Source of the DNA: an uncultured Candidatus Saccharibacteria bacterium | GTDB lineage: Bacteria; Patescibacteriota; UBA1384; XYA2-FULL-43-10; 1-14-0-10-43-13 | Reading direction: 5' to 3' | DNA length: 32,000 nt | Assembly (NCBI GenBank): GCA_964543385.1 | Contig: CAZIYE010000002.1 | Span: 30,001 to 62,000 of the forward strand | Shown: one piece after another, positions 5,291 to 20,814 of the stretch | Numbering within the stretch: the stretch's first letter is position 1 | Layout of the letters: each line of letters begins with the position of its first letter | Translations under genes and position numbers: made by a program | The notes under the pieces: generated by a model | Databases searched by the model: none | What the model saw: only the letters and a program-made list of their open reading frames with translations | Told to the model about the DNA's origin: nothing

Positions 5291-5367
5291 TGGTGGGGCT
5301 GGGCGGACTCGAACCGCAGACCTCTTCAATGTCAATGAAGCGCTCTAACCAACTGAGCTACAGCCCC
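5291..5367 (-). tRNA. tRNA-Val (anticodon GAC), CCA encoded
   Basis: Minus strand reads GGGGCTGTAGCTCAGTTGGTTAGAGCGCTTCATTGACATTGAAGAGGTCTGCGGTTCGAGTCCGCCCAGCCCCACCA. Cloverleaf folded by hand. Anticodon stem CTTCA/TGAAG, loop TTGACAT. One mismatch in the T stem. Confidence 0.9.
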
Positions 5368-17242: not shown

Positions 17243-17563
17243 TTATTTATTGGTATTGTTATTTTTTGAATTTTCAAATAGATTTTCGAAACTTCCATTA
17301 AAATCTTTAAAAAACTTGTATGTTTCGATTACATCGTTAGAGGTAATTTCAGTTCTCCTAGCCATAGAAGCAGGCGATTGCTTTGCTAGACTTACAGTAG
17401 CCAGTAGGGGCATGTGGCTCGAACAGTTGAGTTCTAGGAAAACCAATGAATCAACAACACCACGGATCTGAATCAAAGGAAAATCGTACGATTTGCCGCA
17501 CTGAGGGCAACGTACATTTTTCTGAACAGTTACAAGTAATTTGTATAGATCTTGATGATTCAT
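17243..17563 (-). CDS. hypothetical protein (106 aa) with a single CxxC
   Basis: ORF lies between uvrB and rplY on the same strand and contains VRCPQCGKSY. No family recognised. Confidence 0.5.
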   Translation of the reverse strand: MNHQDLYKLLVTVQKNVRCPQCGKSYDFPLIQIRGVVDSLVFLELNCSSHMPLLATVSLAKQSPASMARRTEITSNDVIETYKFFKDFNGSFENLFENSKNNNTNK

Positions 17564-19630: not shown

Positions 19631-19660
19631 TTAGTGTAGTTGATTGCAGCTACCGGTCTA

Positions 19661-19688
19661 TTGACTTAATTCCTAAAAGTGGTACTAT
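19661..19688 (+). promoter_or_regulatory. sigma70-like promoter pointing into the GC-rich island
   Basis: TTGACT (19661-19666), 16-nt spacer, extended -10 TGgTACTAT (19680-19688). It lies in the uvrB upstream region but on the opposite strand. Confidence 0.45.
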
Positions 19689-19826
19689 AGCTGCTATATC
19701 CAATAATAAACCATACCATTTTTAGAGACCAGAGTCTAGGGTAAATGTATTCTAACCCTGCTCTCTAAATCCCCATATTTTTATGATAGAGAGCAGTGTC
19801 TCAGAACCCCTAGGAGGTATCGAGTT

Positions 19827-20072
19827 ATGGCAAAGCGATCTAATCCCAGCACCAAAGGTGCCAAAAAGCCGGCAACGGAAGCGAAATTGCCTGGCTGGCT
19901 GCGCAATATTGCGCGTCGTGCCAAAGCCATGATTGAGCGTGGCCAACAGGTCATTCTGCTCATCAAAGGCAAAATCCGCGTCGGTCTTGCTTGCAAGGCC
20001 AAGGAGGTAGCTGATACCATCCTTGAAATTAGCAAGCGGCATCAGACCAAAGCAATCCAGATCGCTGCATAA
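19827..20072 (+). CDS. hypothetical small basic protein (81 aa) on a compositionally foreign island
   Basis: A TAGGAGGT SD lies 7 nt upstream of the ATG. G/C is strongly enriched at codon third positions (GCC, CTG, CGT, GGC codons), unlike every neighbouring gene. N-terminus is Lys/Ala/Pro-rich (AKRSNPSTKGAKKPATEAK); the C-terminus ends AIQIAA. No family recognised. Confidence 0.6.
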   Translation: MAKRSNPSTKGAKKPATEAKLPGWLRNIARRAKAMIERGQQVILLIKGKIRVGLACKAKEVADTILEISKRHQTKAIQIAA

Positions 20073-20090
20073 GCAGCAACATCGCAACAC

Positions 20091-20130
20091 ACTCCGGCTC
20101 GTACTGGGTACGAGCCGGAGTACCCCCCCC
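20091..20130. other. perfect 14-bp GC-rich stem-loop followed by a C8 homopolymer
   Basis: ACTCCGGCTCGTAC-tgg-GTACGAGCCGGAGT (20091-20121), then A + CCCCCCCC (20123-20130). No U-tract on either strand, so it is not a canonical intrinsic terminator. Confidence 0.6.
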
Positions 20131-20148
20131 AAGAAGAAGTCAATTGAA

Positions 20149-20814
20149 TTACTTTATTATATCTCTTTTATCATCTCGCCATTCGGCGATTTTTTTGTGA
20201 TCTCCAGATAGCAGTACCTCTGGCACTTTCCATCCGTTATAATCTATAGGTCTAGTATATTGAGGATATTCTTTTAGATAATTACCATTTTCGTCTTTTT
20301 TCATGAAAGTTTCCTCGACTTCTGAGCCCTCTGATAGTACGCCAGGTATCATTCTTGAAACGGCATCTATTATACACATGGCTGGAATCTCTCCACCGGT
20401 TAAAACAAAATCGCCGATAGAAATCTCTTCATCAATAAGGTGCTCCCTGATTCTTTCATCAAATCCCTCATAATGGCCACAAACTAATATTATTCTTTTA
20501 TATTTTGCTAGCTCAATCGCTTTTTCTTGATTAAATCTATTACCTTTTGGAGTAAGCAAAATAGTTCTTATTTTATCTGGCTCTTGGTCTTTTATATCCG
20601 TAATAGCTTTGTCCATCACGTCGATCTTCAAAACCATACCTTTGCCACCACCACATGGCGTGTCATCAACAGTTTTGTGTTTGTCAGTCGCATAGTCTCG
20701 AAGATTGTGACAAGCGATATTAACTAGCTTCTTTTCGCTAGCACGTTTAATGATGCTCTCTGAGAGAGGTCCATTGAACATTTCTGGAAATAATGTGATG
20801 ATGTCGAATTTCAT
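20149..20814 (-). CDS. trmD: tRNA (guanine37-N1)-methyltransferase
   Basis: MKFDIITLFPEMF..., GGGKGMVL, CGHYEGFDERI, SIGDFVLTGGE. Confidence 0.95.
   Translation of the reverse strand: MKFDIITLFPEMFNGPLSESIIKRASEKKLVNIACHNLRDYATDKHKTVDDTPCGGGKGMVLKIDVMDKAITDIKDQEPDKIRTILLTPKGNRFNQEKAIELAKYKRIILVCGHYEGFDERIREHLIDEEISIGDFVLTGGEIPAMCIIDAVSRMIPGVLSEGSEVEETFMKKDENGNYLKEYPQYTRPIDYNGWKVPEVLLSGDHKKIAEWRDDKRDIIK

Follow-up and report, generated by a model that had tools for sequence, protein, structure and literature searches.

Does a sharp GC-rich islet in the AT-rich, reduced genome of an ultra-small bacterium betray a recently acquired gene? The question is raised by a short segment (positions 19661 to 20130) of a 32,000-nucleotide (nt) stretch of a Candidatus Saccharibacteria contig (CAZIYE010000002.1), the whole of which is called the window hereafter. 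Between uvrB and trmD, and on the strand opposite to both, lies a self-contained small gene, whose open reading frame (ORF) encodes an 81-amino-acid (aa) protein, P0001. An initial annotation of this DNA had taken the high content in guanine and cytosine (GC) and the codon usage of the segment as marks of a recent horizontal acquisition, possibly from a higher-GC host or a mobile element. Our comparisons point elsewhere: the islet is probably an old, lineage-restricted small-protein gene, inherited vertically at least within a sub-clade, and lodged in a variable uvrB/trmD pocket of this 0.9-Mb Patescibacteria-type genome. In a reduced, AT-rich genome, a sharp peak of GC thus need not signal recent transfer.

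Occupancy and composition of the uvrB/trmD junction

Regions upstream of uvrB were compared for 22 members of the same family and 18 genomes of two sister families. The genes uvrB and trmD are adjacent throughout the order. In 17 of the 19 family genomes having both genes, these are separated by 0.4-1.2 kb in which GC peaks at 0.53-0.71, and in one member by just 37 nt. Intervals in the sister families mostly measure ~0-320 nt, five being longer. The only genome of the same genus that was compared, G001, has its uvrB missing from the assembly. Homologues at the same place, with the same layout of promoter, leader and 3′ hairpin, were found in three relatives (L007, L032 and G008, the last from another genus), and in L032 the whole order L25, 106-aa gene, uvrB, ORF, trmD, KhpA, S16, def-fmt is identical. 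Judged from these comparisons, the insertion is old and the slot is a turnover pocket. The initial annotation had named conservation by descent in the relatives as one of the observations that would speak against its proposal, and had called for a comparison of synteny; such conservation is largely what this comparison gave, with the same gene order in L032 and the island present in G008.

The composition itself had been well described. The GC content of the ORF is 0.520 (128 of 246 nt), exactly as counted by hand; in 200-nt windows the content rises to 0.54 over the ORF, the flanks being at 0.33-0.40, and it provides the sole 300-nt bin above 0.44 in the 32 kb. GC is raised at all three codon positions (0.56/0.45/0.55, for genome means of 0.47/0.35/0.34), synonymous codon choice is atypical (z = -4.4), and arginine is encoded by CGN in 7 cases of 7, with AGA/AGG, TTA/CTA and ATA all absent. 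The claim that the gene is unlike any other holds within the window but not beyond it: the islet ranks within the top 1.5% when the genome is read in 246-nt windows (mean GC 0.383, standard deviation 0.048), and the genome contains ~90 islets with a GC of at least 0.48. Further self-contained small GC-rich genes with their own promoter, a strong Shine-Dalgarno (SD) sequence and a 3′ hairpin were seen in this genome (G000), examples of GC-rich islets being C1:575455-575619, C1:86286-86552, C1:613671-613847 and C2:94143-94523.

GC at third codon positions is 0.55-0.69 in the four copies, and the proportion of synonymous differences (pS) between the window and L032 is 0.70, near saturation. As GC-richness is kept across near-saturated copies, the composition is maintained, and does not represent a fading foreign signature. 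It is well supported that the high GC has been maintained over a long divergence, and that it goes with selection for a highly folded coding RNA (see below).

The proposal of a recent transfer, out of a higher-GC donor or mobile element, keeps some points in its favour. Composition and codon use are atypical, the genome has other GC-rich genes, and one family member and several sister-family genomes show an empty junction, so an insertion occurred at some time. Moreover, the ORFs of the window and L007 are far more alike at synonymous sites (pS 0.20, proportion of nonsynonymous differences (pN) 0.089) than the uvrB genes of the same pair (pS 0.83, pN 0.078). However, the leader loops of this pair, the nucleotides separating SD from ATG and the 3′ hairpin in its entirety have fully diverged, as neutral sites do, and their divergence beside slow synonymous sites in the ORF makes a recent transfer of the whole unit unlikely. 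The locus is filled in most of the family, with homologues in three relatives. The element is single-copy in its genome; a back-translated scan of 185,579 species genomes gave one spurious Nocardioides match only, and a scan of JGI metagenomes gave no copy outside the lineage. No recombinase was found within 3 kb of the islet, and the sole flanking repeat, an 11-nt inverted repeat (19657-19667 and 20137-20147, 10 of 11 matching), is at chance level by our estimate, ~3 such pairs being expected per 900 nt; its right arm was not seen in G008. This agrees with the initial annotation, which had seen neither recombinase nor flanking direct repeats. We conclude that recent transfer is very improbable. 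What stands of the original proposal is an insertion relative to a direct uvrB/trmD junction; its recency and its higher-GC donor do not stand, since the locus is occupied in the relatives.

Several candidate identities for the islet were also rejected. An IS200/IS605-like element or an integron cassette seems a poor fit, as the two hairpins are unrelated, no transposase or integrase lies nearby and the element is single-copy. There is no tRNA target at the islet, the only tRNA of the window being at 5291. A displaced rplS, or an antisense L19 gene, was ruled out as well, rplS being located on contig C1, away from the uvrB/trmD junction.

A chimeric assembly, which the initial annotation wished to see excluded, has nothing in its favour but the compositional jump. 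The exact 81-aa protein is on record from 4 contigs, the longest of 128 kb, and in the one displayed among them, from a Logan assembly of SRR12261223, the genes follow one another as in the window. Separate assemblies of L007 (ENA), L032 (another SRA run) and G008 gave the identical architecture. Because the exact protein is on 4 contigs and the layout recurs in three independent relatives, misassembly is excluded without recourse to reads, and we give it a negligible probability.

The coding sequence and its product

Two further proteins, both from metagenome relatives, clearly belong to the family. P0002, encoded on a 916-bp contig adjoining uvrB, is 82% identical to P0001. P0003, 45% identical, was recovered by HMMER at E 1e-12 from 1.8 billion proteins, and the gene order at its locus is identical from L25 to def-fmt. 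The three homologues, of 81-83 aa, share the distance from SD to start codon. In G008, the N-terminal half of an 82-aa ORF at the same place shows homology (hhalign 82%, E 1e-5; local database, E 2e-4). No other homologue was found by a word-index search, with the single sequence or with a profile, or by a HMMER scan of 1.84 billion representatives.

The only gaps that separate the ORFs of the window and L007 are two 3-nt indels, both in frame. Replacements among the copies are conservative, some of them requiring two or three base changes. The differences from L032 include K to R replacements reached through three base changes, I/V/L swaps and a synonymous Leu change from CTT to TTG. The ratio of nonsynonymous to synonymous change (omega) is 0.40 overall for the window and L007, and 0.14 for residues 41-81, the C-terminal half. 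By these measures the ORF behaves as a protein-coding gene under purifying selection.

Could it instead be a structured non-coding RNA gene, with a frame left open by chance because GC-rich DNA has few stop codons? Its GC is like that of the presumed rRNA regions of the genome (~0.54), the whole unit folds with a z-score of -7.4 (-4.6 for the ORF part), synonymous sites of the ORF appear constrained, and the leader and the hairpin at the stop codon are conserved. In addition, the antisense frames of the ORF are open in all four copies, with no SD-like site seen upstream of them. An overlapping antisense gene as the source of the synonymous constraint was considered and rejected, since antisense frames tend to stay open where the codons TTA, CTA and TCA are avoided. 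Against an RNA gene stand the consensus SD and the ATG at a fixed distance in all copies, the in-frame indels, the conservative replacements spanning several bases, the low omega of the C-terminal half and the recovery of P0003 by a protein search. The covariance models of Rfam 15, with matches accepted up to E = 1, found nothing within the islet or at six related loci, the only Rfam match in the stretch being at 20409-20463, inside trmD; a hit to a structured RNA, which the initial annotation had listed as contrary to its proposal, did not occur. ARAGORN places a single transfer-messenger RNA (tmRNA) at 2381-2768 and none at 19661-20130, and the RNase P RNA is located elsewhere in the genome. 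We find a purely non-coding RNA very unlikely, and keep to a small-protein gene.

RNA folding was compared with that of synonymous-codon shuffles. The ORF has z = -4.6 in the window, -6.2 in L007, -4.3 in L032 and -2.5 in G008, and 9 of the 14 ORFs found in this slot have z at or below -1.9. In the controls, 14 typical genes gave a mean of +0.08 and 12 other GC-rich genes, large ones, a mean of -2.05. As the other GC-rich genes are also tightly folded, tight folding is a property of the GC-rich gene class of this genome. Selection for an exceptionally folded coding RNA would explain why the synonymous sites are slow. RNAalifold on three ORF sequences gave a partly conserved central domain with few compensatory pairs, which is suggestive only.

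P0001 is very basic (isoelectric point 11.1, net charge +14). An AlphaFold2 model made from three sequences (mean predicted local distance difference test, pLDDT, 70.7) has a disordered Lys/Ala/Pro-rich tail over residues 1-20, followed by an alpha-beta-beta-alpha-beta domain; an earlier model from two sequences was poor (pLDDT 61). Searches with P0001 in Pfam, PHROGs, PDB (by sequence) and Foldseek gave no significant match, in line with the initial annotation, which had recognised no family, and Foldseek on both models returned generic alpha/beta matches only. Pfam and PHROGs searches on ten slot ORFs gave only a sub-threshold HTH_29 match, in G008. The suggestion of a small DNA/RNA-binding or regulatory protein remains plausible for so basic a product, but no family or fold match has come to support it. 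The protein does not resemble a type I toxin of the hok/tisB kind either, being hydrophilic and basic with no long hydrophobic stretch seen by eye. A divergent RnpA was rejected as well: a PDB profile search gave E 0.16 only, Pfam PF00825 did not match, and a bona fide rnpA (67 bits) is present elsewhere.

A ClpXP degradation signal of the ssrA type would end in (L/V/I/A)AA; the C-termini of the slot proteins read QIAA in the window, IVAA in L007, PAAA in G008 and LPVW in L032, and the tag encoded by the organism's own tmRNA ends in PVAA. From its charge and its tag-like end, P0001 would most likely be a short-lived nucleic-acid-binding protein; that it binds nucleic acid, taken by itself, is a tentative proposal, to which we would give somewhat less than an even chance.

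Signals around the gene

The features of the segment are collected in Table 1. The promoter, the SD and the inverted repeat reported in the initial annotation are all present, as is the perfect GC hairpin discussed below, and the inverted repeat (19758-19766 with 19788-19796) extends to 13 nt with 92% complementarity. Transcription of the small gene is predicted to start near 19696. Its promoter is kept in L007, L032 and G008, and an outward-facing extended -10 promoter beside uvrB was found with a strict pattern in 14 of 23 family loci. On the other strand a promoter for uvrB is predicted, with a transcription start near 19703: a -35-like hexamer, a spacer of exactly 17 nt and TAnnnT are aligned on the uvrB-facing strand in 7 of 7 related sequences.

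Table 1. Features in and beside the GC-rich islet (positions in the window)
Feature	Position	Strand	Basis and remarks
Small-gene promoter: -35 TTGACT, 16-nt spacer, extended -10 TGgTACTAT	19661-19688	+	Consensus scan
Predicted uvrB promoter: -35 TAGACT (19738-19733), 17-nt spacer, -10 TATGGT (19715-19710) preceded by TG	19710-19738	-	Conservation
Leader hairpin A: three-segment 20-pair stem, P1 TTTAGAGA/TCTCTAAA, P2, P3	19721-19769	+	RNAalifold consensus of 7 sequences
Hairpin B: 9-bp inverted repeat, alternative pairing re-using the 3′ strand of hairpin A	19758-19796	+	Inverted-repeat listing
Shine-Dalgarno sequence TAGGAGGT	19811-19818	+	9 nt before ATG; AGGAGG-type sites at the same distance in relatives
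Coding sequence of the 81-aa basic protein P0001	19827-20072	+	Homologues in same synteny, in-frame indels, omega below 1
Small hairpin GCUGC-AUAA-GCAGC	20064-20077	+	Stop codon inside the loop; 5′ strand made up of the last two Ala codons; read from the sequence
Perfect 14-bp GC-rich 3′ hairpin, then C8	20091-20130	+	Inverted-repeat listing
Terminator-like TCGCC-ATTC-GGCGA and T7	20176-20199	+	Consensus scan; inside the 3′ end of the convergent trmD, 55 nt beyond the hairpin

Leader hairpin A, the 5′ arm of which overlaps the predicted uvrB promoter, is conserved as a structure. Over the 7 sequences, 93.6% of the alignment cells are paired and 11 of the 20 pairs show compensatory changes; none of 500 shuffles reached the observed value, and slid controls were 31-55% paired. 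Because of its G-U pairs, the hairpin was assigned to the RNA of the + strand. It is the minimum-energy fold in 6 of the 7 sequences, and hairpin B prevails only in the copy of the window itself; on our own reading, equivalent downstream partners for B would exist in the relatives. The leader also persists in three genomes with unrecognisable ORFs, G010, G019 and G015. A covariance model of the leader matched five genera, once in each genome and nowhere but at this locus, with no second genomic copy and no new genus, and a scan of metagenomes with the leader motif as DNA gave three chance matches only, in unrelated GC-rich contigs.

Upstream of the small-gene -35 box, at 8-20 nt, eight relatives (including L012, which is the G008 locus, L007, L032, L011, L017 and L019) have a DnaA-box-like TTATNCACA. 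Between the uvrB start codon and the small-gene promoter, such a site is present in 14 of 23 family loci, perfect in 11, against a hit in 24% of shuffles. At the corresponding position of the window, TTGATTGCA (19649-19657), the box is lost. A perfect TTATCCACA was also seen upstream of the lexA promoter of the same genome (G000 C1, ~108,890). As for a LexA box, lexA is present in the genome, and no motif common to its upstream region and to the locus was recognised by eye.

At the other end of the gene, the block GC(T/A)GC(A/G)TAAGCAGCA.ACATCG, which covers the stop codon, is the best-conserved DNA in the comparison of the window with G008, and is identical in L007. Further on, the perfect hairpin (20091-20121) is followed by an A and C8 (20123-20130) and by no T, as the initial annotation had noted, and so does not qualify as an intrinsic terminator. 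Hairpins of unrelated sequence are found at this position in six relatives (L007, L032, G008, G010 and G019 among them) and, imperfect, in a seventh (G015); the sequence downstream is a C-run in four, and a T-tract in G010, G019 and G015. The terminator-like site located farther downstream, whose sequence is also found in L032, may be the true transcript end, or its T7 may be the antisense of Lys codons of trmD and the site incidental. We also observed that the 3′ stem is perfect over 10-15 bp in the window, L007, L032 and G008 while being built from unrelated sequences, i.e. it turns over fast yet stays perfect, a behaviour that would fit renewal by intrastrand template switching.

Taken together, these signals allow a mechanism to be proposed. 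A strong extended -10 promoter and a consensus SD would drive an mRNA with a leader of ~130 nt holding the covarying 20-bp hairpin, and its translation would give a short-lived protein, with an Ala-Ala end like that of the organism's own tmRNA tag. The small-gene and uvrB promoters would face each other with predicted starts ~8 nt apart; the polymerase footprints would then overlap, only one promoter could be occupied at a time, and the expression of the small gene and of uvrB should be anticorrelated.

An extension of the small-protein reading, compatible with it but placing the main function elsewhere, is a dual-function unit, in which the protein is made and the transcript, or transcription itself, is regulatory, by occlusion of the uvrB promoter, by a switch between hairpins A and B, or by binding of a factor to the RNA. 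The position of the predicted uvrB promoter inside the leader, with its invariant spacing, is in favour of such a function, as are the covariation of hairpin A in spite of its 5′ arm being promoter DNA, the strand shared by hairpins A and B, the persistence of the leader beside unrecognisable ORFs, the DnaA-box-like sites of the relatives and the extreme folding of the coding RNA. On the other side, all promoter calls are consensus-based, the window's own copy has lost its DnaA box, hairpin A is single-copy and confined to five genera, and tight folding is shared with the other GC-rich genes, making it a property of the class and not of the locus. We consider a dual function possible but unlikely. 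A fuller version, drawn from the same signals, would be a replication or DNA-damage checkpoint switch particular to these ultra-small bacteria: a hyper-folded transcript competing with uvrB for RNA polymerase, DnaA-responsive in most relatives, encoding a short-lived basic protein and belonging to a wider folding-selected GC class. This version seems to us quite improbable.

Among the neighbouring genes, the 106-aa ORF on the - strand (17243-17563), between the L25 gene and uvrB, has a CPQCG...C motif with sub-threshold zinc-ribbon matches only; its position is kept in L008 and L032, and no Pfam family is on record for it.

Turnover of the slot and known systems

Most family spacers hold an SD-preceded ORF of ~60-160 codons, and these ORFs are mutually unrecognisable, with the exception of the window type and of one other pair. 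The slot would turn over across the family, the GC-rich small ORF of most genera being either unrelated or diverged beyond recognition. The spacer is 37 nt at its shortest and 1179 nt at its longest. Other GC-rich ORFs occupy the slot in three sister-family genomes, and two of them encode basic proteins related to each other. In L045 and L046 (G041 and G033, of a sister family) we noted a GC-rich slot gene for a basic protein, RNHNRRSKGPVAGPR.DNHPRGN.SPYFTRHRR..., common to two genera and unrelated to the window protein. GC-rich palindromic inserts of ~70-130 nt were also seen between uvrB and the small-gene promoter in L032 (3760-3815), L011 (G010) and L013 (G019), with the sequences GGATCCCGGATC..., GGATTCCGGATCTC... 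and GATCCGGGGATCC; they may be elements akin to repetitive extragenic palindromes (REP) or to miniature inverted-repeat transposable elements (MITE).

A number of observations weigh against an old gene inherited in place and encoding a short-lived nucleic-acid-binding protein. The clear family members are only three among 5.8 billion proteins, so the selection statistics are drawn from very few sequences. In the comparison with L007 the N-terminal half is near-neutral (omega 0.76), and the low pS of this pair could instead reflect a gene conversion confined to the ORF. Among relatives equally distant in UvrB (75-77.5% identity), L032 has an ORF that is still 45% identical, but those of G010, G019 and G015 are unrecognisable, and for these three slot ORFs replacement and divergence in place are indistinguishable. 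Regarding the product, no nucleic-acid-binding family matched P0001 by sequence or fold (best Foldseek E 0.27), and the Ala-Ala end is absent in L032 and could be a by-product of the hairpin at the stop codon.

The contrast between L032 and these three genomes, the range of spacer lengths, the other GC-rich ORFs of the sister families and the further self-contained GC-rich small genes of the genome would all suit a swappable cassette, i.e. lineage-specific units of GC-rich SD, ORF and hairpin, exchanged by recombination through the conserved flanks. On the other hand, the genome, the species genomes and the JGI metagenomes yielded neither a donor nor a second copy for any cassette. Promoter, leader, stop-codon block and position of the 3′ hairpin are common to the window type and to G008, which points to descent in place within the sub-clade, and the G015 ORF has a faint C-terminal similarity to the window protein. 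Exchange of cassettes is possible, if somewhat unlikely. All in all, we favour with reasonable confidence an old small-protein gene inherited vertically in the sub-clade.

If ordinary, the gene is one more orphan small basic protein. The locus bears, besides, on the control of uvrB in ultra-small bacteria, through its facing promoters, its covarying leader hairpin and the DnaA box, on the roles of the many GC-rich orphan small genes of such genomes, and on whether folding serves mRNA stability or a function at the RNA level.

How does this locus compare with known systems? The likeness to RnpA is the faintest: residues 12-49 (...WLRNIARRAKAMIE...) weakly resemble the RNR-motif helix and the following strand of Thermotoga RnpA (E 0.16), but the match is below any threshold, Pfam gives none, and the true rnpA lies elsewhere. 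In helix 5 of tmRNA, the tag frame ends in Ala-Ala with the stop codon in a hairpin loop. Here likewise, in GCUGC-AUAA-GCAGC, the nucleotides following the stop pair back with the two final Ala codons, and the product ends in AA like the tag; the genuine tmRNA, however, is elsewhere in the window, Rfam gives no match, and the ORF has a normal SD and ATG.

Sda of Bacillus subtilis is a small checkpoint protein degraded by ClpXP, whose gene is under DnaA-box control. The small stand-alone gene, the DnaA-box-like site upstream of the promoter in many relatives and the protease-tag-like C-terminus recall it; there is no similarity in sequence or fold, the window copy is without the box and the protein is strongly basic, which leaves an analogy only. 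The E. coli uvrB regulatory region has several promoters and a DnaA box, and a DnaA-box-like element with more than one predicted promoter is likewise found upstream of uvrB in the relatives of the window. Here, in contrast, the second promoter is directed away from uvrB and serves a gene of its own, and no LexA box was recognised by eye although LexA is encoded.

SgrS/SgrT, RNAIII/hld and SR1/SR1P are dual-function small RNAs that also encode a protein. The present unit differs from them in that the ORF fills most of the transcript, and we claim a likeness only, not membership of a family; it has in common with them a short, structured, self-contained transcript of ~430 nt, a small ORF, and a constraint acting at the nucleotide level in addition to that on coding. 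The last comparison is with accessory islets, or turnover pockets. Imported genes are usually AT-rich, whereas the residents of this slot are GC-richer than their genome; they are also tightly folded, have no mobility gene or attachment repeat, and are inherited vertically in the sub-clade. Otherwise the slot is much like such pockets, with uvrB and trmD as fixed flanks throughout the order, a content that is variable or absent, and small orphan genes equipped with their own signals.

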